Shown: positions 14,988 to 49,092 of the stretch, piece by piece | Layout of the letters: the number at the start of each line of letters is the position of its first letter | Numbering within the stretch: the first letter of the stretch is position 1 | Notes under the pieces: model-generated | Databases searched by the model: none | Told to the model about the DNA's origin: nothing | Seen by the model: only the letters and a program-made list of their open reading frames with translations | From: an uncultured Campylobacter sp. | Lineage (GTDB): Bacteria > Campylobacterota > Campylobacteria > Campylobacterales > Campylobacteraceae | Assembly: GCA_963529735.1 (NCBI GenBank) | Contig: CAUSAR010000002.1 | Span: 308-64,307 of the forward strand | DNA: 64,000 nucleotides | Reading direction: 5' to 3' | Program-made: the position numbers and the translations under genes

Positions 14988-17360
14988 ATGAGAAAATATT
15001 TTTTGCTTTTTTTACCGATTTTGGCGTTTTCTTTTAGCCTGAGCGTAAATTCGGGCGCAGAGGACGGCAGGCCATACACAGTGATAAACATCAGCGACGA
15101 GAAGGAATTCGTCTGCAAAGAGGAGATCCTCGCCTACGACCGCAAGCTATATTTTTGCGACGTCGCTAGCGGCGCACTGCCAAAGGTCGACGATAAAATT
15201 TTAGCCCTGGCTGAAGTTAGATTTCGCGAGGAAAAAGGCGGTATGCGTATCTACGTCGTGCCGCGCGTGAGCTCTCGTCTGATCTCGTCTAGCGAGCCTC
15301 TTTACGGCGCATCCGCCGTGCCATTTAGTAAAAACGGCGGCGCAGCCAAACGCCACTCCATCGTGATAGATCAGAATTTAAGCGAATTTAAAAAACAAAC
15401 AAACGCAGGGATAAATTTCGCCCCGATATTTGAGCAGATGACCGCACCTAGCATCGGACCGCTCGATCTAAACAAGGCCCCGATAGAAAGCGGCGATAGC
15501 AACGACATAAATATGTACCTGGATGTGAAAAAAAGCTACGACGCCAAACGCTACGACGACACGATAGCCACGATCCAGACGGCGCTAAGGCGCTATCCAA
15601 ACAGCATTTTTGCCAGCGAGTTTTTGCTATACAGACTGCGCGCTTTGGATAAAATTTTAGACTCGCAAAACAGCTTCGAGGGGCTCGGCGCAGCAGATGT
15701 CGCGAGCGAGGGGCGCGCATGGATGAGGCGGTTCGTGTCGGACGAAAACTACCCCGAGGTACTCTATCTAGTAACCAAAGCCTACCTCAGGCAGGAGCTC
15801 GTTAGCGACGCGAACTACACGCTGGACATCCTCATGAACGAGCATCCAAACTCAAATTTTACCAAGCTAGCCGTCCTTGAGTTTGCCGATAGGCTCTACG
15901 TCACGGGCAGGCAGGACGAGGCGGTAAAGATGTACGAGGACGTGCTGTACTCGGCGCAGACGCTAGACGTCGCTAGCCGCGCGGCTCTGAGCCTCGTGCA
16001 AGGCAGCATTGACAAGGCCAAATTTGACCACGCCAAGGACTTTATGCTCAAAATTTTAAACAGAAATCAAGAGTACCTGCTAAACGACGCGTCAAAACTA
16101 ACGACGCTGGCTGGGGTATTTCACGAGAAAAACATGGACGATATCGCCGCGAGGATATATGAAATCCTGCTCGCTCGTCTAAACAAAAACGACGATGACT
16201 ACGAAACCGTGCTAAAAAATCTAGGCATCGCGCTAACTGGCACGCCGGACACGCAAAAAGCATACGAATACCTAAAAAGATACCAAAGCGAGTTTGCGGA
16301 CGGGCAGTACGCCGCCATCGTGCAAAATGCGCTAGATAAGCTATTTTTCGCCAGAAATGACGAAAACAACGCGACTAAGCTGCACGAACACTACGACGCG
16401 CTTATCGAAAAATACGGCAAAACGGACGTCGGCACTAAGGCGCTAAAAGAGCAGGCCGCGCTCTATCTAAAAGAGCGTAAATTTGACTCCGTCCTACGCT
16501 ACACCCAGGCCGTGCGCGATCTAAACGATACGGACGCTAGCGCGGTATTGGATCAGGCGGCGCTAAATTTAGCGAGTGAAGCCATCCGTCAAAACGACTG
16601 CGTTACGGCTGTAAATTTGACAGAAAACTACGGCGTAGGCGAGAAAATCGGAGCTAAATTTAAGCTCTTTGACTGCTATATGCGCCTTTCTCGCTTCGCC
16701 GCCGCGCACGATCTCGCCTCACAAAATATCCTTGCGCCCGACATGCTCGACCGCGTGGAGTGGCTCATCAAACTAGCCTCCGTTTTGATAAAGACGCAGA
16801 AGTATAACGACGCCTTGCGCGTGGCCGACGAGGCGCTGGCTATCGCATCTAGGCAGGAGTATGCCGACGTCTCGCCCGTGCTTTTTTATAGATTTGAGGC
16901 GCTGATGGGATTAGGTAGGCTCACCGACGCCGCCGCGACGATAACGGCCGTCGAGACGCTACGCAAAAACGACTTTAAGGTCATCGAGCTCTACGACCGC
17001 ATGGCTGAGGCGACGTACGGCGCGAACGACTTTTTAAACGCGTCGGTTTACGCCAAAAAGGCGATCGACCTACAAAAGCGCCTGCATATCGCCACCTTTA
17101 GCCCAAAAATCGACTTTGAGTACATCGGCTCGCTAAGTAAGCTGGATAGACTAGGCGAGGCTTTGCAAGTCGCGCGAGAACTCGTAGATACGCGCCTAGA
17201 TCCCGAAAACAGACTGCGCGCGCTAGCTCAGATCTCGGAAATCTACATCAAACTAAAACGCGAAAGCGAAGCAAAGCCGTATCTACAGGAGTGCGTCGGC
17301 TCAAATCTGCAAAGCTCGTGGAAGGCCATCTGCGCTGAGCAGATGAAGCTCGTGGAGTAA
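14988..17360 (+). CDS. Secreted/periplasmic TPR-like repeat protein
   Basis: Has a signal peptide (MRKYFLLFLPILAFSFSLSVNSGA). The 790-aa body is helical-repeat-rich with many A/L/Y/D-rich ~34-aa units. Confidence 0.7.
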   Translation: MRKYFLLFLPILAFSFSLSVNSGAEDGRPYTVINISDEKEFVCKEEILAYDRKLYFCDVASGALPKVDDKILALAEVRFREEKGGMRIYVVPRVSSRLISSSEPLYGASAVPFSKNGGAAKRHSIVIDQNLSEFKKQTNAGINFAPIFEQMTAPSIGPLDLNKAPIESGDSNDINMYLDVKKSYDAKRYDDTIATIQTALRRYPNSIFASEFLLYRLRALDKILDSQNSFEGLGAADVASEGRAWMRRFVSDENYPEVLYLVTKAYLRQELVSDANYTLDILMNEHPNSNFTKLAVLEFADRLYVTGRQDEAVKMYEDVLYSAQTLDVASRAALSLVQGSIDKAKFDHAKDFMLKILNRNQEYLLNDASKLTTLAGVFHEKNMDDIAARIYEILLARLNKNDDDYETVLKNLGIALTGTPDTQKAYEYLKRYQSEFADGQYAAIVQNALDKLFFARNDENNATKLHEHYDALIEKYGKTDVGTKALKEQAALYLKERKFDSVLRYTQAVRDLNDTDASAVLDQAALNLASEAIRQNDCVTAVNLTENYGVGEKIGAKFKLFDCYMRLSRFAAAHDLASQNILAPDMLDRVEWLIKLASVLIKTQKYNDALRVADEALAIASRQEYADVSPVLFYRFEALMGLGRLTDAAATITAVETLRKNDFKVIELYDRMAEATYGANDFLNASVYAKKAIDLQKRLHIATFSPKIDFEYIGSLSKLDRLGEALQVARELVDTRLDPENRLRALAQISEIYIKLKRESEAKPYLQECVGSNLQSSWKAICAEQMKLVE

Positions 17361-26879: not shown

Positions 26880-26919
26880 AATTTGCTTGCTATAGCATAT
26901 CTTTTATAAAGGATGCGAA

Positions 26920-27375
26920 ATGACGATCGAAGAGCAAAAATTTATCCAAAAGATTTTGGCCGAGCTTGCGCAAAAAGCCATAGAAAAGACTGCAAAGGCG
27001 GTAAAAGGCGCCGACTTTGAAAAAGAGCTCAAAAAAGCCGTTGAGCCGATAAAAACCGCCAAAGAGCCCGATGTGGAAGGCTTTAAAAGGACTCTTACAG
27101 AGCTTGGCGCGGCAGGATTTTTATCGCAGATGAACGAACAAAAAATCCAGGAAAAACTAAGGGTCAAAAAAGAGGAGCTGATGGAGGCTTTAGGGCTAAA
27201 TGCTGATATGAAAAAAGGCCTAAGAGATGAGCTTGAAACCGTACTGGACGATCTTTTGAGCAAATACGAAAAGGAGCTACGAGCTAGTTTGCAAAGCAAC
27301 TCCTTGCTAGAAAAACAGCAATCTTTACAAAATAAAAATTCGTCGATGTTAAGTACGGTTTTGGGCATCGTGTAA
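26920..27375 (+). CDS. Hypothetical Lys/Glu-rich helical protein
   Basis: 151-aa ORF with an AAAGGA RBS. No family recognised. The mirror antisense ORF is rejected. Confidence 0.5.
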   Translation: MTIEEQKFIQKILAELAQKAIEKTAKAVKGADFEKELKKAVEPIKTAKEPDVEGFKRTLTELGAAGFLSQMNEQKIQEKLRVKKEELMEALGLNADMKKGLRDELETVLDDLLSKYEKELRASLQSNSLLEKQQSLQNKNSSMLSTVLGIV

Positions 27376-27757
27376 AATTAACGAAGTTTTAAGTCGCGGC
27401 GAGAATCGGCATGAAATTTGAATTTAATTAAGAATCAAAGCCTTAAAAGCTTGTCGAGGTTAAATTTGCATGTTTTGAGTGTGGTTGCCTATAGAGTTTT
27501 TAGTTGGTGAAAAAATTTCACATAAAATAGCTACTTTCTCTTACAATCATCAAATTTAAAAATAGCTTTTCAAATTTGATCTTGCTAAATTAAACAATCT
27601 TGTATTTAAAACTACCTATCGGTGTTGCACAAATTTGCTTATCATTAAAATTTAAGCAATGCGTCGCAAAGTTGGTAATAAATGATTGAAATTTGATTGG
27701 CAACTTTTGAGTATTTAAAAAAGCAAGAAGGCGAGAGTTTATCTCGCCCAAATTTGA
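27376..27757. repeat. Convergent intergenic spacer densely seeded with AAATTT
   Basis: About 9 AAATTT copies in 382 bp by eye. Confidence 0.75.
27730..27748 (-). terminator. Intrinsic terminator after hpf
   Basis: GGCGAGA-taaac-TCTCGCC on the minus strand, followed by TTCTTGCTTTTTT. Confidence 0.75.
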
Positions 27758-28294
27758 TTAATAAAGTCCGAATTTGCCGTCAGAGCGCTTGTAGATCACG
27801 CGCATTTTGGCGTCCATATCGTTAAATACGTAAAACTGCGCATCGCTATCTTTTAGCTTTTGCATAGCTTCCTCGATCTCTAGGGGTTTATATAGCTCAA
27901 GCTCCATAGGGATTATCTCATCTACCTCGCCGTCAGTCGTCTGCCCGTCTGCGATCGAGGCTCTAACAGCTTTGCCGTCGTCTTTGTTTTTGACGGTGGT
28001 GTTTTTGTCATGCTCGCGGCGAAGTACTTTTGACGCTCGCTCAAGTGCAAGATCGACTGCAGCGTATAGATCTTTATCTTTGTGGCGGATTACGATCGTG
28101 TCTTTTTTTGCCAAATTTAGCGCAAATTCTACGCTAAAGCCTTTTTTGCCGTTTTTTTCGTCCGCAGAAACTACGCAACGACCCGAAATAATATCCAGTC
28201 CGTATTTGTTAAGCGCATCAAATGCATTTTCTATGTGTTGTTTGATTGGGTCTGTTAGGTCAAATTGTTTACCTACGATGCTTAGATTCATCAT
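27758..28294 (-). CDS. hpf: Ribosome hibernation promoting factor (long HPF/RaiA family)
   Basis: NLSIVGKQFDLTDPIKQHIE is the S30AE N-terminus. The C-terminal dimerisation domain (FYVFNDMDAKMRVIYKRSDGKFGL) is present. The start may be the second ATG at 28291. Confidence 0.92.
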   Translation of the reverse strand: MMNLSIVGKQFDLTDPIKQHIENAFDALNKYGLDIISGRCVVSADEKNGKKGFSVEFALNLAKKDTIVIRHKDKDLYAAVDLALERASKVLRREHDKNTTVKNKDDGKAVRASIADGQTTDGEVDEIIPMELELYKPLEIEEAMQKLKDSDAQFYVFNDMDAKMRVIYKRSDGKFGLY

Positions 28295-28342: not shown

Positions 28343-28825
28343 TTAGAGCTTCTGAATCGTGCGTCTGTGAATTCTTATCGGCGGGACATTGGCATTTGCC
28401 GACCTAACGACTACGTCTAATATAACCGTTCCGGCAGATTCCGGGGTCAGTATCGGCACTACCGCCGAACCTCTACCGGCAGCACCGTTGCAAGCTCCTA
28501 TGGTGCCGAGTGCCATATTTACTGTTACTGTTACTGTAAACAAAGAGGTGGCGACGTCGTTGGTTGGAAAAGTTGTTTGTAAAATAGGAGTAGGATTGCC
28601 CGCGTTTAAAAATGCGCAGTTTGCTACTTGCGTGAAATTTGTGTTTAGGAGATTGAAAACAGCTATCTCGGTAGCGCCCTGAGCCAAGAGTTCGGCTTGT
28701 TCTCGTAAAAACACGTCCGATGTTTGTTTTGCCGTAGTTGCAGAAGTATTTAGCGAAAACATAGCCAAAGTAGCTATCAAAACTATAAAAATAATCGCCG
28801 TTACTAAACTAAATCCTTTTCTCAT
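28343..28825 (-). CDS. Prepilin-type minor pseudopilin lacking Glu+5 (GspK/PilX/MshP-like position)
   Basis: The N-terminus MRKG|FSLVTAIIFIVLIATLAMF has a short basic leader, Gly-1, Phe+1 and a hydrophobic helix, but Thr at +5. The start at 28825 overlaps the upstream stop (TAATG). Confidence 0.75.
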   Translation of the reverse strand: MRKGFSLVTAIIFIVLIATLAMFSLNTSATTAKQTSDVFLREQAELLAQGATEIAVFNLLNTNFTQVANCAFLNAGNPTPILQTTFPTNDVATSLFTVTVTVNMALGTIGACNGAAGRGSAVVPILTPESAGTVILDVVVRSANANVPPIRIHRRTIQKL

Positions 28826-29763
28826 TAGTATATCGCCTTTGTTTTGCATACAGTAGTCTCGGCTTCTGCAGGCTCTAGCGATCTGCCGGCGTCCCTTATG
28901 CATAGTTTTAAAACTATAATACCGTTTGCTTCCGTAAAGTTAAATCTCGTTACGTTTGTAGCTAGCAGATCTGAGTTTCCGTTATTGTATTCTTGTCCTG
29001 CCCATGGACGAAAATTATAATGAAGGAATAAGCTAAAATCTCCATTGGCACTAGCCACGCCAGGAACTACCGCATAAGCCGTATGAAGCAAATAGTATTG
29101 TTCCGAGATAAGAGCATCTCTGTAGTTTGCTACACTTAGTATGTTATTTTGACCATTGGCTACTATGGTGCCTATGGAATTTGCATTCGTTCTGTTATAG
29201 CCAAAAGAAGTAGCGGGGTTAAGACTCATATTTTTAAACACTATGCCTATATTGCCGTTGGCTATGCTGGCTGCACTGTTGGTGAGATCTCTTATATTTT
29301 GATCGGCTGAGAAGTTAGGTGCAGCCGCGGCTACGGCCAATCTGCTTCCGGGAGTCGATATTGTTCCGCTTCTTGCGTTTCCGTCTATGTCTGCTATTGC
29401 GGTATTTGGACTACTCAGGTCTGCAAAACCGCTCCATCCTCCGTCCTGAAAGCTCTCGTAGCTATACGTCACCCACTCTAGTATAGAAAAGGTATTGTTT
29501 AGCCCCGCCGCGCTCGTAGATACGAAAGCTCCGTTTCCGTTGGCGGCCGGCTGTTTTCCTATTGTTGAACCCCTAACTCGTATGGCAAGTCTTTTTGAAA
29601 TTTGCTCTAGAACTAATTCGGTTTGCGTTTCTAGGGTATTGATGGCTCTGCTTTGGAGGTAGCTTCTATATATATTAAGAGTCATTTGGATGCCCATATG
29701 CGATAATAGTCCTATTATAACTATAACAACCATTAGTTCAAGTAGCGTAAAGGCTTTTTTCAT
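28825..29763 (-). CDS. Prepilin-type minor pseudopilin (large; PilW/GspJ/MshO-like size)
   Basis: The N-terminus MKKA|FTLLELMVVIVIIGLL is an N-methylation motif with Glu+5. The protein is 312 aa with a C-terminal Cys pair. Confidence 0.8.
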   Translation of the reverse strand: MKKAFTLLELMVVIVIIGLLSHMGIQMTLNIYRSYLQSRAINTLETQTELVLEQISKRLAIRVRGSTIGKQPAANGNGAFVSTSAAGLNNTFSILEWVTYSYESFQDGGWSGFADLSSPNTAIADIDGNARSGTISTPGSRLAVAAAAPNFSADQNIRDLTNSAASIANGNIGIVFKNMSLNPATSFGYNRTNANSIGTIVANGQNNILSVANYRDALISEQYYLLHTAYAVVPGVASANGDFSLFLHYNFRPWAGQEYNNGNSDLLATNVTRFNFTEANGIIVLKLCIRDAGRSLEPAEAETTVCKTKAIY

Positions 29764-29768
29764 TTTAT

Positions 29769-30380
29769 CTACCAGACCTTGGTTAAAATCGCGGGCGCAT
29801 CGCCGATATTGGCCGAATACGCTCGCAGGATTATCTGATGGCCGACCCCTTGGCCTCTGGTGTTTTGGGTTGTTGCCGTTACGGCAATCTCCCGTACGTC
29901 ATTGTCTGCTACGCCGGACATATTTCGCGAGAGATTTACGTTGCTTACCAAATTTGCCGTTATTATGCTATCTCTATCGTATCCTGCGGTGCTAGTTATC
30001 TGGGTACGTCTTCCGTTAAATGAGTTCAAAACGCCTGTTCTGTTTTCCCAAGGTCTACACACTACGCCCACTCTTGCTATATTGGAAAAAATTCTTCTTC
30101 CCTCTTGAGATATACCGTTTGTGGTGTAAAAATTATTTAAACCCCCAAATATAGGAGTCGAAAGTCTTGCGAAAGCGTCCCGTCCGGTGCAACTCCAAGC
30201 CGCGGTAGAGATGATGGCTAGTCTTGTTTTAGCATCCATTACTGTTTCTTGTATTACGGCCAAGCTGTTATTTTCTGATACTCTAGAAAATACATTTGGC
30301 ACTACAGCCATCGTCAATCCCATAATAACGATGGCTAGTATAAGTTCTATCAAAGAAAAGCCTTTTTTTGCTCTTACCAT
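29769..30380 (-). CDS. Prepilin-type pseudopilin
   Basis: The N-terminus MVRAKKG|FSLIELILAIVIMGL has the canonical G|F..LxE motif. The protein is 203 aa. Its ATG overlaps the stop of the giant gene (ATGGTAA). Confidence 0.8.
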   Translation of the reverse strand: MVRAKKGFSLIELILAIVIMGLTMAVVPNVFSRVSENNSLAVIQETVMDAKTRLAIISTAAWSCTGRDAFARLSTPIFGGLNNFYTTNGISQEGRRIFSNIARVGVVCRPWENRTGVLNSFNGRRTQITSTAGYDRDSIITANLVSNVNLSRNMSGVADNDVREIAVTATTQNTRGQGVGHQIILRAYSANIGDAPAILTKVW

Positions 30381-33300
30381 TCTATTCTCTTGCTCGGTTT
30401 ATCTATGATATTATTTAGCCTGCCGCCGCCTTGCGTACCCACGACGTTACCTACGCCCACGTCTGCTCCTTTGTTATTAAGGGACTGTCCTCCCCAGTTT
30501 ACGTTATTTGACGTAAAGTTAACGGTAAAGCGATTTACGGCAGCCAAAGCATTTATCGGGTCAAATATAAGCCAACCTGATGCAGGCATGCTGATGATGT
30601 CCGTACCTACTACGGTGCTTGAAAGTCTCATGTTGCCTATACCGTTTGCCGGAACTGGAGTGGCCGGGGCTATCGTAGTCGTAGCAGCGCCTGCTAGTGC
30701 TCCGCTCGTTCCTTGAGCTAAATTTGTATGGGCCGTATTTACAAACCAATTACTCGCTTGCGGTAGCTGAGTGCCTGTGGCTAGAGTATATATGGCGTTA
30801 TTGCAATCGTTACAATATATGCCGTAGTATAGGTTCGCATTAAAACCAGCTTGCGGTCCGGTGTATGTCGGCGCATATACCCTGCCGTAGTAAAACTGCG
30901 TCGTACTGACGACGGTAGGTCTTGCGTATGCAGCGCCGGCTACGGAGTCTGTATCCGATATACTGCCTATCGTTAAGTCTTGGTTGCTTAAAGTAAATGG
31001 ATTTTTAGGTATATTTACGCTTCTTGCAAAATTTAGCCTTACAGTTACAGGTGCCGTGCCGCCGGTAAAAGCGTTGGCATTTACGCTATATGCGCCGTTG
31101 TTTGCTACGGCGTTTACTTTTCTTACGAAACTAGGCGGATTGTTATCAAAAAATATAATTGCATTTCGAATATCTGCAAGCGTCGCCGCACCGCCGTTGT
31201 TTGTTCTAAAGTCGCCTAAAATTTGACCGATTCCTAATGTAAAATTATTGTTTCTAGAATAGCAACCGGTATGGTATAGCGTAGCAGCCGTCCTGGCAGC
31301 ATCGCCTAATCTAGCCGTTAGATTAAACGTTACGTTTGCTCCCATAGGCGCAACGTTTGACATATATGTCATATTTCCGCCGGCAAAATTAGTTACGGTT
31401 AAATTTTGCGCCGCTATATCATTTGGTACGAATAGCAAATTTTGCTCGCCTCTAGTTTGGGTATCGCAACCTATCTTGCCGTTCGCGTCTTCTGTCGTGG
31501 TATCGCTATCTGTTATGCAGTCGCTAGGATTGCCGCCGGTGCCTCTATCTACGTTTGTCCACTTCGTATCTTTGGCGTGTATGGCGACGTGTCCTATATT
31601 TGGATATACGAAGTCGCTAGTAGTGCCTCCACCTTGGGATATTTTTATTTCTCCTAGTCCGTTAGTGGTATCGGCTTCTAGGTTTATACCGTTTAAAAAC
31701 GTAAAGCCGTCGGTGCAAGTTGCCGGAACTAGAGTCGATCTTCTAAGTGTAATAGGTTTTATATTTGTCGAGTAGTTGGCTGCTGTATTGTTTTCATTAT
31801 CTATGGCTTGTACCCATATATTTTTATACGCTCGTCCTCCGACCATGCTTCCAAAATTTGTCGTATTGGTTGTTTTGTTATAAATTCGCAGCTCCTTCGG
31901 CCTTATCGAAAACGAATCGGAACTACAAACTTTGTGGTCTATATTTTTCGCGTCTTTATATGAAAGTCTAAATATCAAATTTGGATAAGCTTTTTTGATT
32001 AAGATATTTTTTAGATCTATTATGCTTTTGCTGGCCAGATCTGTTTTTAGTACTCGAATCGCTTGGCCGCCTTCGATTACGTTTGGTGCGTTGTCGCAAG
32101 GTTGATTTGCTTCTATTACGTCTACGTAAACGTCGTTGGCAAAGTTAAAATCGTCAAGTTTTTTAACCTCGTTGCCGTTTTCTTCGCTTATGAATAAATT
32201 TACCAATTTGACGTCAAATTTTCTTGCGGCAAGTTGAGTGAATAAATTTTCCGAATCACCCAATGCGCCGAATTTTTTATTTACAACTTTTGATGCTATA
32301 CTTCCTACTCTTAGTTGATATTTTGTTTCGGTGCACTCTTCGATGGCACCCTTATACACTAGCTTTATGCTAGGATTTTCAAAATTTGCGGTATATGAAT
32401 TTCTAGCAAAAGCCTCTCCGAGTACTGTATCAAATTGTATAAAAGCTTGGTTACTACTTCCTATAGTACCGCCGTTGCCTCCGCCAGCACCTTGACCGAC
32501 TAGGAATTTTAGCTTACCTGAGGTATAAGTTTGCAAATTTGTATTATCTGGGTTTTTATCTCCCGCTCCTACGGCGAAGGCTGTTCCTCTTCCGACGTCG
32601 GGTTTTATAAACGTAGTATTATTTATATATGTCGAATTTTTTGGATCTAGGGCAGTATTTATGGATAATTTTTGTGCCTCTTCGTTTCCGTTGTTTACTA
32701 TTTGAAGCCTAACTCTTAGCGTATCCCCTTTTTTTGCGATAGTTTTGTTGCTGGCATTGGTGCTAACCGGTTCAAAGTCTTGTTCGCCAGTTTTATCTTT
32801 ATCTCTAACATATAGTGTTTCTATATAACATACTTTCGGTACATATAGATCGGTGGAAAATGCCAGCATACCCACGGTGGCTTCGTCGCCTTGCACGCTA
32901 CCGCCGCCTTTTTGAACGATCTTTGCAGTTAGTCTTATGTCGGCGGATGTTTGTTTGTTGTTAAGTTTTCCGGTAATATCGTATGTATCTAAATCCATAC
33001 TGGCGTTATACTTTTTGCTCGGATTTAAATGCTTATTAAATTTAGATATAGTGGAGTTAAACTGGTCGCCTTTTTTATTTAGGGTACTATCAAAAATTGA
33101 ACTATACGGCGAATAGCTATCTTTTCTAATCTCTATATCCTCAGCCGAGATCTCGCTCGCTGCGCCGAATGAAAGAGTAGTAAGAGAGGAAACTACCGTA
33201 CCGTTTACGGGAGTATAAAAGCCGCTAACAGTTATGTTTGCGCTCCTGCTGGCTCCTTGACTTAAGTCTAGCGGCGTTAGCGGTTTGATACCGTCAAATA

Positions 33301-34216
33301 TATTAATGCCTTTAGGTTTTATTTTTTTGCCGTCTTTGCTACCAAAGTCATATACTATAACTAGCGCCCATCCTCCGTATCTAGGCGATTGTAGATTGTT
33401 AAACCATTTTCCGTCGGTGTAAGAATACACTGATGGGGGCATGCCGTTGTGAGTTTTGATATCGCCTGCGCTAAAAGTTCTGCTTGCTACGGTGTTTCCC
33501 AGAGATTGTTTTACTATCTCGGTAACGTCGGCGCTTGCTTGATATTGAAATCTCATGCCCCAGCCCGAAAACGACCCCGACCAGAATACGTCTTTTTCTT
33601 GTGCGGTAATATTATAGTATCCTTTTGGCGTTCCGAATCTTACAGTATTAAAATCTTTTATCGTATCAAAGTAGCTTGTTCTGGCCGAATATTCGTTTCC
33701 GATATTCCAGCTTCTGGCAAAACCTCCGGCCCAGTAAAGCCTAGCGAAGACCACTCTCTTGCCTATTATATCATTTGCGATACTCGCTCCGTCGGTATTT
33801 TTCCTGTCGGAAAAGTCAAAAGTCGCTTTTGATGAATTGAAGCTATAGTTTGGATCTTCTTTTTCAAATACAACATCCGTGATGGATGTATGTATCGTAC
33901 TGGAACTTAAAATAGGCCTGTAATTATAGCCGTATCCTTGGGAGCTATTGCCCACAGTTCTTAAGACAGAGGCCCCGATGGTCTCTATATCACCGTATAT
34001 TATCTTTCTTTCTTCTAGTCTTTTAATGCCATACTGGTCTATTACTTCTTCATTTATGACTCTTTTTTGAAGGTTGGCGGTTTCTTTATTGTCTAAATAT
34101 CTGCCAGATGATGCGGAAGCTAAATTATGTTCCAGATAATTTTTATCTTTTACTGCAAAGGCGCTACTTGCGCTTAGTAAAAAAATCGCAACTAGAAAAA
34201 AATTAGAATTTTTCAC
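30374..34216 (-). CDS. Giant (1280 aa) secreted protein of unknown family; candidate pilus-tip-associated protein (functional analogue of MshQ/PilY1)
   Basis: GTG start at 34216 with an AAGGA RBS 7 nt upstream. The signal peptide is VKNSNFFLVAIFLLSASSAFA|VKD. The body is Asn/Thr/Gly/Ser-rich and beta-type. It is translationally coupled to three pseudopilin genes. The upstream 28 codons of the raw ORF overlap fliW and are rejected. Confidence 0.8.
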   Translation of the reverse strand: MKNSNFFLVAIFLLSASSAFAVKDKNYLEHNLASASSGRYLDNKETANLQKRVINEEVIDQYGIKRLEERKIIYGDIETIGASVLRTVGNSSQGYGYNYRPILSSSTIHTSITDVVFEKEDPNYSFNSSKATFDFSDRKNTDGASIANDIIGKRVVFARLYWAGGFARSWNIGNEYSARTSYFDTIKDFNTVRFGTPKGYYNITAQEKDVFWSGSFSGWGMRFQYQASADVTEIVKQSLGNTVASRTFSAGDIKTHNGMPPSVYSYTDGKWFNNLQSPRYGGWALVIVYDFGSKDGKKIKPKGINIFDGIKPLTPLDLSQGASRSANITVSGFYTPVNGTVVSSLTTLSFGAASEISAEDIEIRKDSYSPYSSIFDSTLNKKGDQFNSTISKFNKHLNPSKKYNASMDLDTYDITGKLNNKQTSADIRLTAKIVQKGGGSVQGDEATVGMLAFSTDLYVPKVCYIETLYVRDKDKTGEQDFEPVSTNASNKTIAKKGDTLRVRLQIVNNGNEEAQKLSINTALDPKNSTYINNTTFIKPDVGRGTAFAVGAGDKNPDNTNLQTYTSGKLKFLVGQGAGGGNGGTIGSSNQAFIQFDTVLGEAFARNSYTANFENPSIKLVYKGAIEECTETKYQLRVGSIASKVVNKKFGALGDSENLFTQLAARKFDVKLVNLFISEENGNEVKKLDDFNFANDVYVDVIEANQPCDNAPNVIEGGQAIRVLKTDLASKSIIDLKNILIKKAYPNLIFRLSYKDAKNIDHKVCSSDSFSIRPKELRIYNKTTNTTNFGSMVGGRAYKNIWVQAIDNENNTAANYSTNIKPITLRRSTLVPATCTDGFTFLNGINLEADTTNGLGEIKISQGGGTTSDFVYPNIGHVAIHAKDTKWTNVDRGTGGNPSDCITDSDTTTEDANGKIGCDTQTRGEQNLLFVPNDIAAQNLTVTNFAGGNMTYMSNVAPMGANVTFNLTARLGDAARTAATLYHTGCYSRNNNFTLGIGQILGDFRTNNGGAATLADIRNAIIFFDNNPPSFVRKVNAVANNGAYSVNANAFTGGTAPVTVRLNFARSVNIPKNPFTLSNQDLTIGSISDTDSVAGAAYARPTVVSTTQFYYGRVYAPTYTGPQAGFNANLYYGIYCNDCNNAIYTLATGTQLPQASNWFVNTAHTNLAQGTSGALAGAATTTIAPATPVPANGIGNMRLSSTVVGTDIISMPASGWLIFDPINALAAVNRFTVNFTSNNVNWGGQSLNNKGADVGVGNVVGTQGGGRLNNIIDKPSKRIEW

Positions 34217-34235: not shown

Positions 34236-34619
34236 TTATTTCTCAATAAAATCCGAAATTTTTTCAGCCTGTTTATACATTGGATATGCCCATGCATCAA
34301 GGACTATTTGCGAGAGCGTCATATTTGTCATGTTGCAAACGATAGGAGCGATAAAATTTACCGTCGATGTCTCGATCGGAGTGCTCACGACCATGATATT
34401 GTAAATTCTTAGCTCACTTTTGTCGTTTATATCCATCAGCTCCTGATAGTACGTCGGTATATCAAATTCGTAATTTCTCAAGGCGTACGGGTTTATCGCT
34501 GTAAAAGACGTCTCATCGTCCTTGCTTTGAAGCTTTACGAAAAATTGATCCAGTTCTTTTAATTCATAACTTTTAATATGTTCAAAGCCTAAAATCGGGC
34601 TTTTGACTTGAAAAATCAT
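34236..34619 (-). CDS. fliW: Flagellar assembly factor FliW
   Basis: [20 protein letters not shown]...INPY...IAPIV matches the conserved FliW pattern. An AAGGAG RBS precedes the ATG at 34619. Confidence 0.9.
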
Positions 34620-34725
34620 ATATATCTCCTTAATTAAATATTTACTTTTTACGCGAATTGTATCCAAAATTTCCTATTTTTAAGCATAAAATGAAAACAA
34701 ATTTACCGAAAAGCAATAAAAACAA

Positions 34726-37899: not shown

Positions 37900-38426
37900 C
37901 TACTTTAATATCATCAATTTACGATTAAAATTTCATTTATGATCAAGAAAATTTAAAAATTTTGTAAAGCACAAACGCTATGATTTTAACGATATTCTTA
38001 AAATTAGCGAGCATGGCGAAGTAGAGTTTGCATGCAACAACTGTAAAGACTATATCGCGTTTTACTAAAATCGACAAGACGCGTTACAAACAATAGAACG
38101 AAATCGCCGCTAAAATTTACTCAAGCTTTATTGAGCGTGCGTATTTCTTAGTATTTGCTATTTGTGCTTAGGCTTAGCCTGAGATATATGCTTGATCTTA
38201 TTTCTTCGTTTGCTAACATGGTTTGAAGCTTGGAAGATAGGATGGAAGGATTAGTGGATTCTAGGGATTTAGCAAGAGAGGAAAAGGATACTTATTTGGC
38301 GAATAAAGAGACGCCAAATAAGTAAACGATAAAAAACAAAAAAGATATCCTTCGCAAAATCTACTTCCCTAACTATACTGAAATTTACGGCTAAATTTAA
38401 TCACAATAATGTGATTTAAGGCAGGC

Positions 38427-39026
38427 GTGGGTAAAATATGGGAACTTGAATTTGGGTGGGGTGAGATGGAAAAAGATGATAACGAGTTTATGGATTTGCC
38501 TGAAAATATTAAGCTCGATGAGGATGAGTATATCATCTGCCGATATAAAGGAAATCACGTTAAAGAGCACTTTGTTAGGTTTTTATTTGCCTTGCTTTGT
38601 ATTGTAATATTTTTATATACATTGTTTTTTGGACAAAATTTTGAGCAACAAAGCGCATTTGTAAAAGCATGTATTATTTTTTTTATATTTTTTTGCATTT
38701 TACTGGTATATCTTTTTATAACCAATTAGATTCACAAAGGTCTATATTTAACAAATAAACATTTGATATCCTTTAATGGAAATAAATTTGACTTAGGCTC
38801 CATATACATACTTGACACAAGCGCTCGTCAAAATAAAGAATTTTGCGTATGCAACGGATGGAAAAATATCCTGGAAATTAAATGTGCAGAAGATGATATT
38901 AAACTAGATATATTTATATTTTATTTAGTCGATATATCTGGAAATAAAAGTATTTTTAGATTTGGTTCAAAGGAGCTAAGAGCTAAAGCCGTAATGGATA
39001 ATTCGGTTAGATTTAAATTAATGTAA
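38427..39026 (+). pseudogene. bPH (DUF304/YdbT-like)-type membrane protein split by one in-frame TAG
   Basis: ORFs 38427-38729 and 38763-39026 are in the same frame. The only stop between them is the TAG at 38727-38729. The merged product has DEYIICRYKGNH, then 2 TM segments, then LTNKHLISFNG, which resembles the two-TM plus PH-domain layout. Confidence 0.5.
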
Positions 39027-39036
39027 GGAGACAATA

Positions 39037-40310
39037 ATGCTAAGCAGCAAGGATAGCAACGAAACAAAAAGTTTTTACAGAAGAAGATCTTAGAAGAGTT
39101 CCTGGTGTGTGTTTTTTGATACATCTAGTGCGCTGATTTAAACTTTTAAATAAAGGAGATGAATTTGCAAAAAATGGGGCCATTTTTATTGCAAAAGTAG
39201 GATTTGTTACTGGGCTGGTAGCTGATTTAACAATAAATATATCTAAAAATAAAGATGGTAGTATAGTTTATACGATTGCTTCAACAACCACAAAAGATAC
39301 TATAAAATATTATGCATCTTATTGGGCAACTACGACTTTGGCGCTTGCGATTGTTGCTAAAGCAACATTGTTTTTGGGAGCCGGTGTTAATGGCAACAGG
39401 ATTGGCAGTAGTTGGAACAACAAGCTTATTTATAGTTGTATCATATGGCACAGATTATCTATTAAATAATTTAGAAGAAATTATTAATCAATCTATTGAT
39501 CATTATACCAATAAAGAAATTGAACTCTACACTCCTACCATCTACGGCAAAATAACCCAAAAAGAATTTATGATACAAGAGTTAGAACAAAATAATAAAA
39601 CCACAAAAGATTTTTGTATGAGAATGTATCCTAAATTTGCAAGATATGTTCAAACGAGGGATTTAAGCAAAGTAGATATCAGCACGGTTTCAAATTCTGA
39701 TTTTATCCAAAGAATTACGCTCAAAAAACAAAAATGCACTAGCCATAAAAACAGCCTCCGAGGTAGGTAGCGTAAAACAAGCTACCGAGATATTTGAAAT
39801 CATAAACGCTATGCCTAACATCCCAACCGTAACCCTCAACTCCCACACCTACGACATAAGAAACCTTTCAAATTTAGAGATAAGAAATGCGATCGATAAG
39901 ATACCTCAGGTATCTTTCCTACTTTCCAATATCCTGATAAGAACCGGCGAAGAGCTGGATCTGGGAAGCAAGGGAATATACAAAGTAAAAAGCGGAGATA
40001 CTCTCTCAACCATAGCTCAAAGAAACGGTATGGTTACTAAAGAGCTACTAAAGCTAAACACTTGGCTGGTAGATGAAGGCAGAGTATCTTTCCTGCAAAA
40101 CAAGGTATTGGTAGAATCAAGCATACTGGAACTAAACGAGATAGATCACGTCCTAACGGGTGATAGAAACGCCGAAAATATCCTCATAGATGCAAACGGG
40201 GGGAGACGATACTCTAGTGGGCGGTAATAAAAAAGATATACTAAAAGACGGCAATAGTTTGGACGTAACAATGATAAAGACACAAAAAGAGTTCTATAAT
40301 TTTTATTAAA
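39037..40310 (+). pseudogene. Multiply frameshifted remnant of a larger gene with Gly-zipper TM, LysM and RTX-like Ca-binding-repeat segments
   Basis: Coding-looking sequence jumps frame at about 39385, at the A-run 39722-39735 and at the G6 run 40198-40203. It contains KVKSGDTLSTIAQRNGMVTKELLKLN (LysM). After a -1 shift it contains IDANGGDDTLVGGNKKDIL (GGxGxDxL nonapeptide-like). Confidence 0.5.
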
Positions 40311-40460
40311 TAAAATATGAGATATTGGGGCAGTAATGTAAGTTGTAGTTAAAAATTAACTTAAACCTAGTTGGGTATATTTTAAATATGGTTTGTACTT
40401 TTTTCTTGTTAAGCTTAGAAAAGTGGTGTAGGGGGGGTGGAAATAAAATTTAAGAAATTT

Positions 40461-46690: not shown

Positions 46691-48328
46691 TTGAACTCGA
46701 AACCTAGAAAAAAAGCCGCGAAAAGGCGCTCCAAAAAGGGGCGCTCGCGCGGCGGACTAAAGCTACTACTTTCCGTTTTTCTCATCGCCTGTATCTTGAT
46801 TGCAGGGGCATTTTATCTGCTGGACGTCAGGGTAAAGGTTAAAAGCGACAACGCGCTGATCGCTAAAATCGAGCGGTATTTCGGCGATAAAAGCGAGTCC
46901 GAGCAAAAGCAAAATTTAAGCCACAAACCAAGCCTTTCAGCCTCAAACAGCTCTGAAAAAGTCACCACAAAAGACACGCAAGCCGCCTCAGGCGTGCACT
47001 CGAGAGCAAATTTAACCGATATAAAGGCGCTTTTTGACGAGGCGGATGCTAAAGGTAAAATAAAAATCGGCGGCGAAAAAGCTAGAGCCGAAGAAAAAAA
47101 CGATCAAAATTTGATAAACGAGCAGGCTAAATTTGATAAAAGCGGGCAAGGCGCACCTGCGACCAAAGATAAAATCTCGCCCGAGAGCGTAAATTTAGCC
47201 TCCCGCGACACTTCCGAGCTGGACGGCGCAAACGCCAAAAAGGTCGGCGAGCTAAATTTGACAAATTTAAGCTCTAAAAACGAGCCCGCTAAAACCGCTC
47301 AAAATGGAGGCGATGGTGTCAAATTTGACGCCTCGCAAACGCCTCAGCGAACGCATATTTTTGCAAATTCCGAAGCCGTGATCTTTGACGATACGCCTAT
47401 GTCGCAGGCGCAAAATAACTCCCTCGAGCAGGCGCTAAAAAAAGAAAAAATCCATATCGAATTTAGCGACGCAAAAGATGCCGCAAGCGATCAGGCGGGG
47501 CAGCTCGAAGTAAAATTTGACGCAGAAAACGCGCCGCAAAACTCCGAGCAAAACGAGCAAGAAAAAATAGAAAAAGAAAAGCCTAAAAAGGACGAAAAAG
47601 CCAAATTTTCAGACACAAAAAAGACGGATAAAAAAAGCGCGACCGAGACAAACGAGGTAAAGGCAGCCGTAAAAGCTGGCTACAAACCGCGCCTAGTCAT
47701 CATCATCGACGACGTGGCATACAAGCACCAAGCAGACGCGATAAAATCGGTCAACCTAAAGCTCACGCCGTCCTTTTTTCCAGCCACTTCCGCCCACCCC
47801 GAGACACCTGTTTTGGCCCGGCGTTTTAGCTTTTATATGATCCACCTGCCCATGCAGGCTCTAGGCGGCTTTAAGGGTGCCGAGATCGGTACTCTCACGG
47901 TCGACGACGACTACGAAAAGATCGCTAAAAAACTGCAAAGCATCAAGCGAGACTTTCCGAATCTAAAATACATCAACAACCACACGGGTAGCCGCTTTAC
48001 GAGCGATGCGGCCGCGATGGATAGGATGATGCGGGCGGTGCGGGACGAAAATTTGATATTCGTCGATAGCAAGACGACCTCGCCGACCAAGGTTTACGGC
48101 GCGGCGAAAAAATACTCTATGCCATACATCGCGCGCGACGTGTTTTTGGATCACGACGGCTCAAAAGCGGCCGTGCGAAAGCAGCTAAAATACGCCATCG
48201 AGCTAGCTAAAAAGCGCTCATACGCCATCGCGATCGGCCATCCGCACAAAAACACGATCGAAGTCCTGCAAGAAAGCGCCAAGCTCCTGCAGGAGGTCGA
48301 GGTTATCTACCTAAAGGACCTTTTTTGA
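46691..48328 (+). CDS. Membrane-anchored divergent polysaccharide deacetylase (YibQ family) with a long low-complexity linker
   Basis: TTG start, a basic N-terminus plus a TM segment, about 280 aa of low complexity, then the YibQ-like core (RLVIIIDDV..., NNHTGSRFT, IGHPH). Confidence 0.8.
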   Translation: MNSKPRKKAAKRRSKKGRSRGGLKLLLSVFLIACILIAGAFYLLDVRVKVKSDNALIAKIERYFGDKSESEQKQNLSHKPSLSASNSSEKVTTKDTQAASGVHSRANLTDIKALFDEADAKGKIKIGGEKARAEEKNDQNLINEQAKFDKSGQGAPATKDKISPESVNLASRDTSELDGANAKKVGELNLTNLSSKNEPAKTAQNGGDGVKFDASQTPQRTHIFANSEAVIFDDTPMSQAQNNSLEQALKKEKIHIEFSDAKDAASDQAGQLEVKFDAENAPQNSEQNEQEKIEKEKPKKDEKAKFSDTKKTDKKSATETNEVKAAVKAGYKPRLVIIIDDVAYKHQADAIKSVNLKLTPSFFPATSAHPETPVLARRFSFYMIHLPMQALGGFKGAEIGTLTVDDDYEKIAKKLQSIKRDFPNLKYINNHTGSRFTSDAAAMDRMMRAVRDENLIFVDSKTTSPTKVYGAAKKYSMPYIARDVFLDHDGSKAAVRKQLKYAIELAKKRSYAIAIGHPHKNTIEVLQESAKLLQEVEVIYLKDLF

Positions 48329-49092
48329 ATGTTTTAACCGAGCTTCCTAACGGCCTTTTGCATCTTAAAAAGCCGCCGGCAAAGCTATATTTTGATGGAA
48401 ATTTAGCCCTGCTTGAGCGTCCGATGGTCTCAATCGTAGGCTCTAGAAAAGCCAGTGCTTACACCAGGCAGTGCGTAGAGGCGCTAGCTAGGACGCTCGC
48501 AAACAGCGGCGTTTGCGTGGTTAGCGGAGCGGCTATAGGTGTAGATATCGCCGCGCATAAGGGGGCTTTTCCGCATACCATTGCGGTTTTTGGCAACGGA
48601 CTAAGCAAAATATACCCGCCAAGCAACGCCAAAATCATCAAAGAAATTTATCAAAACGCACTGGCTCTGAGCGAATACGCCCCTGACGAGCCGCCGCTTG
48701 CTTATAGATTTTTGGAGCGAAACCGTATCGTAGTCGCGCTCTCGCAGGCTCTAGTCGTGGCGCAGGCCGACCCTAAAAGCGGCTCGATGCAAAGCGCGCG
48801 TATGGCAAAAGAGCTTGGAGTGCCGATATTTACGCTACCTCAGCGCCTAGGCGAGAGCGACGGGACAAACGAGCTGGTCGCTAGTGGCGCGGCAAATTTG
48901 ATAAACGATTTTGACGCTTTTGCGCTTCGTTTCGGCGGTAAACCCACATCTGTGCAAGAGGATGAGGTGATAAAATTTTGTAAAAACGGCGCGAACCTTG
49001 ATGCGGCTTTGGCGAAATTCGGCGATAAAATTTACGAATACGAGCTCGAAGGCAAGCTGCGAATATCTGGACTTACGGTATTTGCGGAGTAA
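48325..49092 (+). CDS. dprA: DNA processing protein DprA (Smf)
   Basis: Shows VSIVGSRKAS, VVSGAAIGVDIAAHKGA and GSMQSA. TTG start overlapping the upstream stop. Confidence 0.9.
   Translation: MNVLTELPNGLLHLKKPPAKLYFDGNLALLERPMVSIVGSRKASAYTRQCVEALARTLANSGVCVVSGAAIGVDIAAHKGAFPHTIAVFGNGLSKIYPPSNAKIIKEIYQNALALSEYAPDEPPLAYRFLERNRIVVALSQALVVAQADPKSGSMQSARMAKELGVPIFTLPQRLGESDGTNELVASGAANLINDFDAFALRFGGKPTSVQEDEVIKFCKNGANLDAALAKFGDKIYEYELEGKLRISGLTVFAE

Follow-up and report, generated by a model that had tools for sequence, protein, structure and literature searches.

The 64-kb stretch of DNA analyzed here (the window) carries on its minus strand, between fliW and hpf, a gene for a large exported protein followed by three prepilin-type genes:

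34236 to 34667, minus strand: fliW (PF02623, NF009790, and synteny)
30374 to 34216, minus strand: the large gene, encoding a 1,280-aa MshQ-like (DUF6701-related) exported protein (open reading frame, translation, ribosome-binding site, and homologues)
34154 to 34216, minus strand: Sec signal peptide, aa 1 to 21, cleaved after AFA (sequence, only hydrophobic segment, conserved in homologues)
32831 to 34006, minus strand: N-terminal head, aa ~71 to 462, an all-beta jelly roll or sandwich (AlphaFold2 pLDDT of >90)
32297 to 32830, minus strand: DUF11/CARDB-like beta-sandwich, aa ~463 to 640 (subthreshold CARDB, DUF11, and TIGR01451 matches; AlphaFold2 strands)
30467 to 32296, minus strand: C-terminal Ig-like rod, aa ~641 to 1250, homologous to the DUF6701 (MshQ-type) region (hhalign, AlphaFold2, and Foldseek)
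30377 to 30418, minus strand: conserved disordered C-terminal tail, ...LNNIIDKPSKRIEW-COOH (pLDDT of <50, family consensus)
29769 to 30380, minus strand: pilin A, 203 aa, G/FSLIE, Glu5 present (PF07963 and TIGR02532 above threshold; PilI/GspI and ctsT position)
28825 to 29763, minus strand: pilin B, 312 aa, A/FTLLE, Glu5 present (PF07963 and TIGR02532; PilJ/GspJ/MshO sized, Cj1078 position)
28343 to 28825, minus strand: pilin C, 160 aa, G/FSLVT, no Glu5 (weak GspK match; Cj1079 position)
27729 to 28294, minus strand: hpf with a terminator-like hairpin at 27749 to 27729 (Pfam and terminator scan)

The open reading frame picked out in the first-pass annotation is real. Its GTG start codon at 34216 has AAGGA 7 nt upstream, and the MKN... 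start is where the alignment begins in all homologues of the 1,280-aa protein; for both reasons, a longer form starting at TTG (34300) is unlikely. The co-directional fliW gene lies 19 nt upstream. The window shows translational coupling of the large gene with pilins A, B, and C: the stop codon of the large gene lies, as first noted, inside the first pilin gene (a 7-nt overlap, ATGGTAA), pilins A and B are 5 nt apart, and the pilin B stop and pilin C start overlap as TAATG. Prepilin N-methylation motifs occur in the genes downstream of the large gene (PF07963 and TIGR02532 above threshold). hpf is found directly 3′ of pilin C in other loci as well (L001, L002, L003, L055, and L087), and the hairpin that follows it is probably where the transcription unit ends. 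The window contains no machinery gene of the Cts or MSHA systems; dprA lies 14 kb away.

The unannotated 1,280-aa protein begins with MKNSNFFLVAIFLLSASSAFA followed by VKD, comprising a lysine-containing n-region, a hydrophobic core, and an A-F-A cleavage motif, and because the signal region contains no cysteine there is no lipobox. Hydrophobicity of transmembrane grade is confined to residues 4 to 22, the next best 19-aa window reaching 1.19 (Kyte-Doolittle), so that the earlier description of a Sec signal with neither lipobox nor membrane anchor stands. So does that of an Asn/Thr/Gly/Ser-rich, beta-type protein: these residues make up 35% of the total, there are 10 cysteines, and AlphaFold2 models of both halves are all-beta (pLDDT of 90 and 88). 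On its own, the protein matches nothing in Pfam, NCBIfam, or the PDB; membership in an S-layer, glycosidase, or autotransporter family, which the first-pass annotation had named as contrary readings, was looked for among Pfam and NCBIfam profiles together with RTX families, and none matched.

The head (pI 9.05), with the motifs ARLYWAG and YGGWALVIVYD, has no Pfam or PDB relative and no counterpart in any library; other sequence stands in for part or all of it in 35 of 126 family members, and it is presumed to be a ligand-binding module. The invariant residues Cys463 and Cys628 bracket the sandwich that follows. Characteristic of the rod are CSSDSFSIRP, DC..GKIGC, LLFVPNDI, MTYMSN, and FYYGRVYAP, and its AlphaFold2 model gave Ig-like matches in Foldseek. 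Ig-repeat adhesins, invasin, alpha-2-macroglobulin, and S-layer proteins were the best structural matches of the large protein.

Exhaustive profile searching gathered around the 1,280-aa protein a family of 2,453 representatives (about 1,075 to over 2,400 aa), in which the C region sits at the very C terminus in 120 of 126 members and the N terminus is variable. The window protein does not match Pfam DUF6701 even at an E value of ≤1. Family members P0175 and P0198 exceed the DUF6701 cutoff over the region equivalent to the rod, and precomputed DUF6701_3rd and DUF6701_4th matches are on record. The family profile also matches P0063 (E = 8e-7). With 234 bits, P0063 is a full-length DUF6701 protein; it holds the MshQ position of an MSHA-type pilus operon, its gene coming after those for an MshEN-type ATPase, a platform protein, four N-methyl pilins, and a 135-aa pilin lacking Glu5. 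Aligned with hhalign, the family and P0063 match with a probability of 95.6% (E = 1.1e-8) over aa ~614 to 960 of the window protein, sharing CSSDxF[AS][IV]RP, DC..GK..C, F[VI]P, and TYM. The last ~230 aa of the window protein and the end of P0063 do not resemble each other significantly (hhalign E = 0.21). The profile searches and structure prediction recommended at the outset thus yield a blank in Pfam for the protein itself, a link to DUF6701 for its family, and an all-beta fold, and what had been called an MshQ analogue proves to be a remote homologue of the MshQ-type DUF6701 family. One slip in the accompanying size comparison is its unit: “1.2-1.3 kDa-scale” should read 1.2 to 1.3 thousand residues.

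The association with minor pilins, first suggested from this locus, extends across Campylobacterota. Of 84 related loci, 61 link the large gene to a PilI/J/K-like trio (pilins A, B, and C); in the remaining 23, the flanks are too short to judge linkage. The large gene lies upstream of the pilins in 44 of these 61, downstream on the same strand in 13, and downstream on the opposite strand in 4. Linked loci occur in Campylobacter, Sulfurospirillum, Sulfurimonas, and Sulfurovaceae, and the four-gene unit relocates as a block into unrelated genomic contexts. Two loci (L041 and L063) have the trio with no large gene within several kilobases. Relatives of pilin B, which is 97% identical to CSHOW_0737 of C. 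showae, were found in 256 species-level genomes. At position +5, the five pilin C orthologues all have T, A, or M, and across the related loci the third pilin never has Glu5. The absence of Glu5 is the hallmark of PilK/GspK and is invariable in PilK homologues (PMC13533445), and we propose that pilin C is a PilK/GspK/MshP-like apical pilin and a candidate strand acceptor.

The gene order Lon-BamD-FliW-[large gene]-A-B-C corresponds to lon-Cj1074c-Cj1075-proC-ctsT-Cj1078-Cj1079 in C. jejuni, with fliW as the synteny anchor to Cj1075. The trio occupies the chromosomal position of ctsT-Cj1078-Cj1079, and it is by this position that pilins A, B, and C are taken as their counterparts; ctsT and Cj1078 carry prepilin tags. 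The Cts neighborhood is shared (rpsR-lon-bamD-fliW-...-pilins), but in C. jejuni proC takes the place of the large gene, and CtsT has 100 aa compared with 203 aa for pilin A. In the C. jejuni group, transformation depends on ctsT, and the proC-ctsT-Cj1078-Cj1079 locus holds no large gene; the large protein is therefore not a general requirement for Campylobacter transformation.

Two segments had been put forward as the pilin-docking part. The Tyr/Gly-rich one (FYYGRVYAP...) forms a buried, confidently folded beta-core in the AlphaFold2 model rather than a flexible element. The extreme C terminus, on the other hand, is the most universally conserved feature of the family, as a docking strand should look. 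It is disordered in the monomer model (pLDDT of <50), follows the consensus [KR][KR]-[ILM]-[DENQ]-W across 176 collected family proteins, ends in W preceded by [KR][KR]x[DENQ] in 131 of the 141 top hits, and is kept in every complete linked gene, whatever its size or arrangement. In PilC/PilY1, a beta-strand formed by the last ~10 residues joins the PilK sheet and licenses assembly, and a strand from MshQ onto MshP is likewise predicted, from AlphaFold models rather than experiment (PMC13533445). By analogy only, we propose that the tail would donate a beta-strand to the Glu5-less pilin C.

Our preferred interpretation, to which we assign a probability of roughly 0.7, is that the large protein is a very divergent MshQ/DUF6701 member and the nonpilin subunit of the tip module of the Cts machine. 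Being encoded with three tip-pilin genes across the whole phylum, it is the strongest candidate for the tip or adhesin subunit of the pilus that takes up DNA in Campylobacter. The module would comprise this MshQ-like protein, PilI-like pilin A, PilJ-like pilin B, and Glu5-less, PilK-like pilin C, and would be part of the Cts system, the only type IV filament machine of Campylobacterota (responsible for DNA uptake in C. jejuni). After Sec export, the large protein would fold in the periplasm into a beta-rich, disulfide-containing rod, and its last ~10 residues (...KPSKRIEW), disordered alone, would become an extra strand in the pilin C sheet. The pilin A-pilin B pair may then recognize the large protein-pilin C dimer, forming a complex that primes filament assembly and remains at the tip. 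The DUF6701-like Ig rod (aa ~640 to 1250) would serve as a stalk, from which the lineage-variable head (aa ~70 to 640) would face outward to bind a surface, a cell, a polymer, or possibly DNA. Several observations count against this interpretation: a gene order unlike that of mshDOPQ and pilVWXY1, where the large gene follows the pilins; a window that holds no machinery gene; a protein that falls below Pfam DUF6701 and whose last ~230 aa are unlike the end of P0063; and the loci with a trio and no large gene, together with a C. jejuni group that apparently manages without the protein.

A tip-located protein whose head captures extracellular DNA, as the surface receptor of the competence pilus in Campylobacterota, seems to us unlikely, although several features speak for it. 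The trio sits at the ctsT locus, and ctsT is counted among the C. jejuni competence genes; the cassette is kept in free-living Sulfurimonas, Sulfurospirillum, and Sulfurovaceae, so its function is not host specific; the head is mildly basic; dprA is nearby; and large tip-associated DNA binders exist, such as ComZ of Thermus. However, neither profile nor structure searches detected a DNA-binding domain or fold; natural transformability is found in C. jejuni, C. coli, C. lari, and C. upsaliensis, none of which has a large gene at the locus; and relatives swap the head for cadherin-, Calx-beta-, He_PIG-, or DUF11-type modules, a pattern typical of adhesins. Moreover, in other systems it is minor pilins that bind DNA (PMC12123422).

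It is improbable that the protein is a purely periplasmic factor for pseudopilus assembly or licensing, binding no ligand and never carried outside the cell. To our knowledge, no pilus has been seen on Campylobacter, and the published model holds the C-terminal strand by itself to be partly sufficient for licensing (PMC13533445). Nevertheless, ~1,250 residues of conserved, disulfide-containing beta-domains, with a head exchanged between lineages, exceed what a 10-residue licensing signal needs. The tip role of MshQ is itself so far predicted from AlphaFold models only. Least probable is a free-standing secreted or surface adhesin, cotranscribed with the pilins and unattached to them, whose C terminus is a sorting or secretion signal (as a substrate of a T2SS-like Cts machine or a generic Ig-repeat surface protein): the structural matches, a terminal aromatic residue resembling outer membrane sorting signals, and the nonadjacent machinery genes are outweighed by profile and hydropathy scans that found no beta-barrel, autotransporter, LPXTG, PEP-CTERM, or transmembrane anchor, by a tail that is basic and polar rather than an alternating hydrophobic beta-signal, by trio linkage that survives three rearrangements and relocation across the phylum, by homology to the MshQ-position protein of MSHA operons, and by the fact that we know of no conserved linear C-terminal signal in T2SS substrates.

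Returning to the tip-module interpretation, the closest likeness is to MshQ. Both proteins have about 1,100 to 1,300 aa, a Sec signal, and an all-beta fold, are remotely but significantly homologous over the DUF6701 region, and keep a conserved C-terminal region below a variable N terminus. Their genes accompany those of PilI-, PilJ-, and PilK-like pilins, of which the PilK-like one lacks Glu5. Even their ends are alike, KRIEW here and RRENY in the MshQ-type P0063 both being basic-basic-x-polar-aromatic. Unlike MshQ, the window protein lies below Pfam detection, has a last domain with no detectable similarity, and carries a head (ARLYWAG, GGWALVIVYD) for which no library holds a counterpart; its gene usually precedes the pilins, whereas in mshD-O-P-Q the MshQ gene comes last, and the cassette lies apart from the genes for the ATPase, platform protein, and secretin. 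Like type IVa PilC/PilY1, the large protein is exported and encoded with a minor-pilin tip set, and it has a conserved C-terminal part, a variable N-terminal head, and a short conserved extreme C terminus. The PilY1 reading nonetheless fails, and we reject membership in the PilC/PilY1 family, as the protein shows no beta-propeller or vWA domain and matches PilY1 neither in Pfam (PilY1, Neisseria_PilC) nor in structure. Pilin C resembles GspK/XcpX of the T2SS and ComGG in missing Glu5 and in its apical position in the gene order, but it is small and lacks the GspK alpha-domain; whereas those proteins supply the last strand in cis, here the large protein would provide it in trans, as for PilK and MshP. 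Finally, Thermus ComZ and Caulobacter CpaL/TadG, large tip-associated modules that minor pilins bind or are fused to, are pilin-like or pilin fused, whereas the large protein contains no pilin domain and has a Sec signal that is cleaved; what they would have in common is a large beta-rich module at the tip of a type IV filament.

We conclude, from profile and profile-profile comparisons of sequence, that the large exported protein encoded beside the three pilin-like genes is a remote homologue of the MshQ-type proteins, too divergent for the Pfam model to detect. This places a family of "hypothetical proteins" that spans the phylum within the MshQ family, as a previously unannotated branch of a known protein kind. 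The genes concerned are as follows.

30374-34216, minus strand: the large gene (open reading frame and translation)
29769-30380, minus strand: pilin A
28825-29763, minus strand: pilin B
28343-28825, minus strand: pilin C
27729-28294, minus strand: hpf

The first-pass annotation described a 1280-aa, Asn/Thr/Gly/Ser-rich, beta-type protein with cysteines and a Sec signal, lacking a lipobox or membrane anchor, whose stop codon falls inside the start of the first pseudopilin gene, and this description holds. An AAGGA ribosome-binding site lies 7 nt 5′ of the GTG at 34216, and the resulting MKN... start is where the alignment of every homologue begins; because both favor the GTG, a TTG start at 34300, which would yield a 1308-aa product, was rejected. 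The stop codon and the start of pilin A overlap in ATGGTAA, pilins A and B are separated by 5 nt, and pilins B and C overlap in TAATG. Upstream, fliW ends 19 nt from the large gene; downstream, hpf starts 48 nt after the trio, with a strong terminator-like hairpin beyond it. Since hpf follows pilin C and the hairpin comes after hpf, all six genes from fliW through the large gene and pilins A, B and C to hpf may form one transcription unit. Promoter-like sites in the window showed no enrichment over shuffled sequences. In most lineages (loci L001, L002, L003, L055 and L087) hpf also lies 3′ of pilin C, a linkage to the pilin cassette without apparent functional reason.

The N terminus of the large protein is a standard Sec signal (core FFLVAIFLL, cleavage motif A-F-A/V, the slash marking the cut), with no lipobox Cys, and the rest of the protein has no stretch of sufficient hydrophobicity to cross a membrane. 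Together N, T, S and G account for 35% of residues, and most of the 10 Cys are invariant across the family. AlphaFold2 models of the two halves, built with about 50 homologues, are all-beta (residues 22-650, pLDDT 90.3; residues 630-1280, pLDDT 88.1); the C-terminal half is a set of Ig-like sandwiches, and disorder in these monomer models is confined to the last ~30 residues.

A Pfam hmmscan of the 1280-aa protein returned no match to DUF6701 (PF20419) even at an E value of ≤1, and NCBIfam likewise returned none. The first search found 56 relatives, all annotated as hypothetical and nearly all from Campylobacter (the C. showae group, C. rectus, C. curvus and others), with distant relatives in C. 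geochelonis and Sulfurimonas. An exhaustive search with a profile of residues 110-1280 then gave 2453 representatives at an E value of ≤1e-3 (about 2450 clusters at 50% identity), 1351 of them at ≤1e-10 and 464 at ≤1e-30. Two of the seven low-ranked top hits, P0175 and P0198, passed the curated Pfam threshold for DUF6701 (33 and 36.6 bits, respectively, versus a cut-off of 27), and P0175 is an intermediate, matching Pfam DUF6701 from position 99 to 546 and reaching ~1150 in the family profile. The family profile also matched P0063 (E value, 8e-7), a full-length DUF6701 protein (234 bits, positions 2-576 of 577), beyond which a word-indexed profile search with A3 gave little. P0063 is encoded at locus L088, where its gene comes after those for an ATPase with an MshEN domain, a platform protein, four N-methyl pilins and a pilin of 135 aa without Glu5, and before PilN-like genes; this gene set is an MSHA-type operon, which puts P0063 in the MshQ position. 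By hhalign, the Campylobacter family aligned with P0063 at 95.6% probability (E value, 1.1e-8; 294 columns), across residues ~614-960 of the window protein only, and the two share the motifs CSSDxF[AS][IV]RP, F.Y..[IV]G, DC...GK..C, F[VI]P and TYM. The last 230 residues, compared with the end of P0063, gave an E value of 0.21, which is not significant. What had been offered as an analogy with MshQ thus becomes remote homology, on the strength of the profile matches and the hhalign alignment to P0063.

Within the family, the C-terminal, DUF6701-like region (the rod) is the constant part: it is found in 120 of the 126 members of at least 900 aa and ends at the protein C terminus, while the N-terminal part is partly or wholly swapped in 35 of the 126, the replacements being cadherin-, Calx-beta-, He_PIG- or DUF11-type modules. 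All complete linked genes, whose lengths run from about 1075 to over 2400 codons, encode a terminal Trp with [KR][KR]-x-[DENQ] before it, within the tail consensus ..N-I-S-x-K-T-N-[RK]-R-[ILM]-[DE]-W; the MshQ-position protein P0063 ends in RRENY. We considered and rejected a reading of the terminal Trp as an outer membrane protein beta-signal. A minority of members end instead in ...DYAP[AS][IV][RQ], for example DYAPAIR (P0153, P0124, P0133, P0156, P0157 and P0194; L086, 6001-12075). This ending may be an alternative docking tail; P0153, which carries it, still has pilin-like genes (212, 311 and 149 aa) on its 3′ side.

All three genes 3′ of the large gene are prepilin-type by Pfam and NCBIfam. 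Glu5 is kept in pilin A (203 aa) and pilin B (312 aa), but pilin C (160 aa) has G/FSLVT at its processing site, and position +5 is A, M, M and T in four orthologues and never Glu. The missing Glu5 is a hallmark of the apical PilK/GspK/MshP class of pilins (PMC13533445). Pilin C, with a prepilin-like N terminus of this kind and the last place in the trio, resembles the PilK/GspK type; it also has a weak NCBIfam match to GspK (E value, 0.004) and is third in an I-J-K gene order. When pilins A, B and C were compared by hhalign with the MshD-, MshO- and MshP-position pilins of L088, only the N-terminal helix aligned, so the I/J/K assignment rests on order, size and Glu5. Pilin A ends in ...LTKVW (29769-29790, minus strand; TKVWR in C. 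curvus), a terminal Trp that echoes the tail of the large protein. One locus (L087, 9594-12062) has four small genes 3′ of the large gene (218, 305, 134 and 162 aa) rather than three.

Pilin B was used for a genome scan, which turned up relatives in 256 species-level genomes, and the 80 closest loci, which we examined, belong to Campylobacter, Sulfurospirillum, Sulfurovaceae and unclassified Campylobacterales. By tblastn and ORF extraction, 61 of 84 related loci have a member of the large-protein family linked to the trio; in the other 23 the flanks are too short for linkage to be judged. The large gene is immediately upstream in 44 of the linked loci, often overlapping pilin A, downstream past hpf on the same strand in 13, and downstream on the opposite strand in 4. 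Two loci from metagenome-assembled genomes (L041 and L063) have the trio and hpf with no large gene within 3.5-7.5 kb, which could reflect true loss, relocation or an assembly effect; at L041, secA and a lolC-like gene lie upstream of the trio, where the large gene is missing. At L004 the block of four genes lies in unrelated genomic surroundings, and it recurs around more distant family members; the MSHA-type reference locus L088 carries the same PilI/J/K-type set, with a K-type pilin without Glu5. Among the 25 window ORFs scanned we found no type II secretion or type IV pilus machinery (MshE ATPase, platform or secretin); the neighbors are housekeeping genes. These data define a portable four-gene candidate tip module, comprising the large protein and I-, J- and K-like pilins.

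To our knowledge, the Cts machine of Campylobacter, which takes up DNA in C. jejuni, is known from genetics alone, with neither a filament nor a tip complex, an adhesin or a DNA receptor at the surface yet assigned to it. The window is similar to C. showae (its pilin B shares 97% identity with CSHOW_0737, among the best 120 of 1154 matches) and reads rpsR-...-Lon-BamD-FliW-large gene-A-B-C. For C. jejuni, the supplementary tables of Fouts et al. (2005) give rpsR-lon-Cj1074c(comL)-Cj1075-proC-Cj1077(ctsT)-Cj1078-Cj1079, with ctsT and Cj1078 bearing prepilin tags and entered as competence genes; C. geochelonis has the intermediate order proC-A-B-C-hpf-large gene. Because these orders correspond, the C. 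jejuni side being taken from those tables, the trio is equivalent to the ctsT cluster, by position only. As tabulated by Fouts et al. (2005), the ctsT loci of C. jejuni, C. coli, C. lari and C. upsaliensis hold no large gene, and the protein therefore cannot be required for Campylobacter transformation in general. A role as DNA receptor, which the first-pass annotation had also proposed, is possible, somewhat weakened and unsupported: the head, or N-terminal all-beta part, is only mildly basic, and we detected no DNA-binding feature in the protein. It is unlikely, in our estimate, that the head is what the competence pilus of Campylobacterota uses as its long-sought extracellular receptor for DNA and that the C. 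jejuni group lost it, the role moving to reduced pilins; if so, a non-pilin, MshQ-type tip protein would capture DNA. C. showae, C. rectus, C. curvus, Sulfurospirillum and Sulfurimonas carry the protein and the C. jejuni group does not at this locus, a contrast which could reveal what a DNA-uptake pilus gains from an MshQ-type protein.

Of the suggested MshQ/PilY1 likeness, the MshQ part stands as remote homology and the PilY1 part as a functional parallel only. Membership of PilC/PilY1 was rejected: there is no Pfam match, the Ig-like C-terminal half has no beta-propeller, and PilY1 is not among the Foldseek matches in the PDB. Searches of Pfam, NCBIfam and PHROGs with the 1280-aa protein gave only subthreshold CARDB, DUF11 and Glyco_hydro_79C, a PDB-sequence profile search gave nothing at an E value of ≤10, and Foldseek (both halves against the PDB, the N-terminal half against BFVD) gave only matches of a generic kind (Ig, jelly-roll, adhesin, capsid or tail protein) at TM-scores of <0.3, including PrgB Ig domains, invasin, alpha-2-macroglobulin and S-layer proteins; the head has no relative in the domain or structure libraries searched. 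Foldseek and the sequence searches therefore rule out a PilY1 propeller, a vWA domain, any confident LamG match, an autotransporter or RTX protein (no confident match to either family), a glycosidase (Glyco_hydro_79C at an E value of 0.017, 16 bits versus a cut-off of 27) and, the S-layer and invasin alignments being generic Ig-domain ones, an S-layer protein.

Several other features of the window were noted in passing.

48325-49092, plus strand: dprA (DNA_processg_A, 203 bits), at a distance of about 14 kb from the pilin genes and part of an ilvC-polysaccharide deacetylase-dprA block that in C. geochelonis (L002) lies a few kb past the large gene
~38000-40400, between lon and rpsR: unusually low GC, 0.33 versus ~0.45 around it, with short ORFs only (among them 39312-39770 and 39811-40227, plus strand); the gene order, elsewhere shared with C. 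curvus, is broken here, perhaps by an insertion
26904-27375, between the ferrochelatase gene and hpf: fully overlapping antisense ORFs of 154 aa (minus strand) and 151 aa (plus strand), the latter Lys/Glu-rich and without a Pfam match
14988-17360, plus strand: a protein of 790 aa that has TPR repeats and, at its N terminus, a DUF7494 domain, unrelated to the large protein and its pilins

How the large protein might work is suggested by PilC/PilY1, whose final ~10 residues join a PilK-type pilin as an additional beta-strand, which licenses assembly of the tip complex and fiber (Ellison et al., PNAS 2026, PMC13533445); MshQ-MshP strand addition is predicted by AlphaFold models, and mshDOPQ is syntenic with pilVWXY1 (PMC13533445). 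On every testable count the large protein fits this PilC/MshQ scheme, given its MshQ homology, a universally conserved tail left disordered in the monomer models, an adjoining gene for a pilin without Glu5, and a constant rod with a variable head. By analogy, its tail would add a beta-strand to pilin C and the protein would sit at the filament tip, which would bring a new phylum under the model of tip assembly by beta-strand addition. It is plausible that in oral and emerging Campylobacter species the protein serves as an adhesin and surface antigen. Like PilC/PilY1, it is encoded with a minor-pilin tip set and ends in a conserved C-terminal peptide, although this resemblance is functional only, whereas the kinship is with MshQ.
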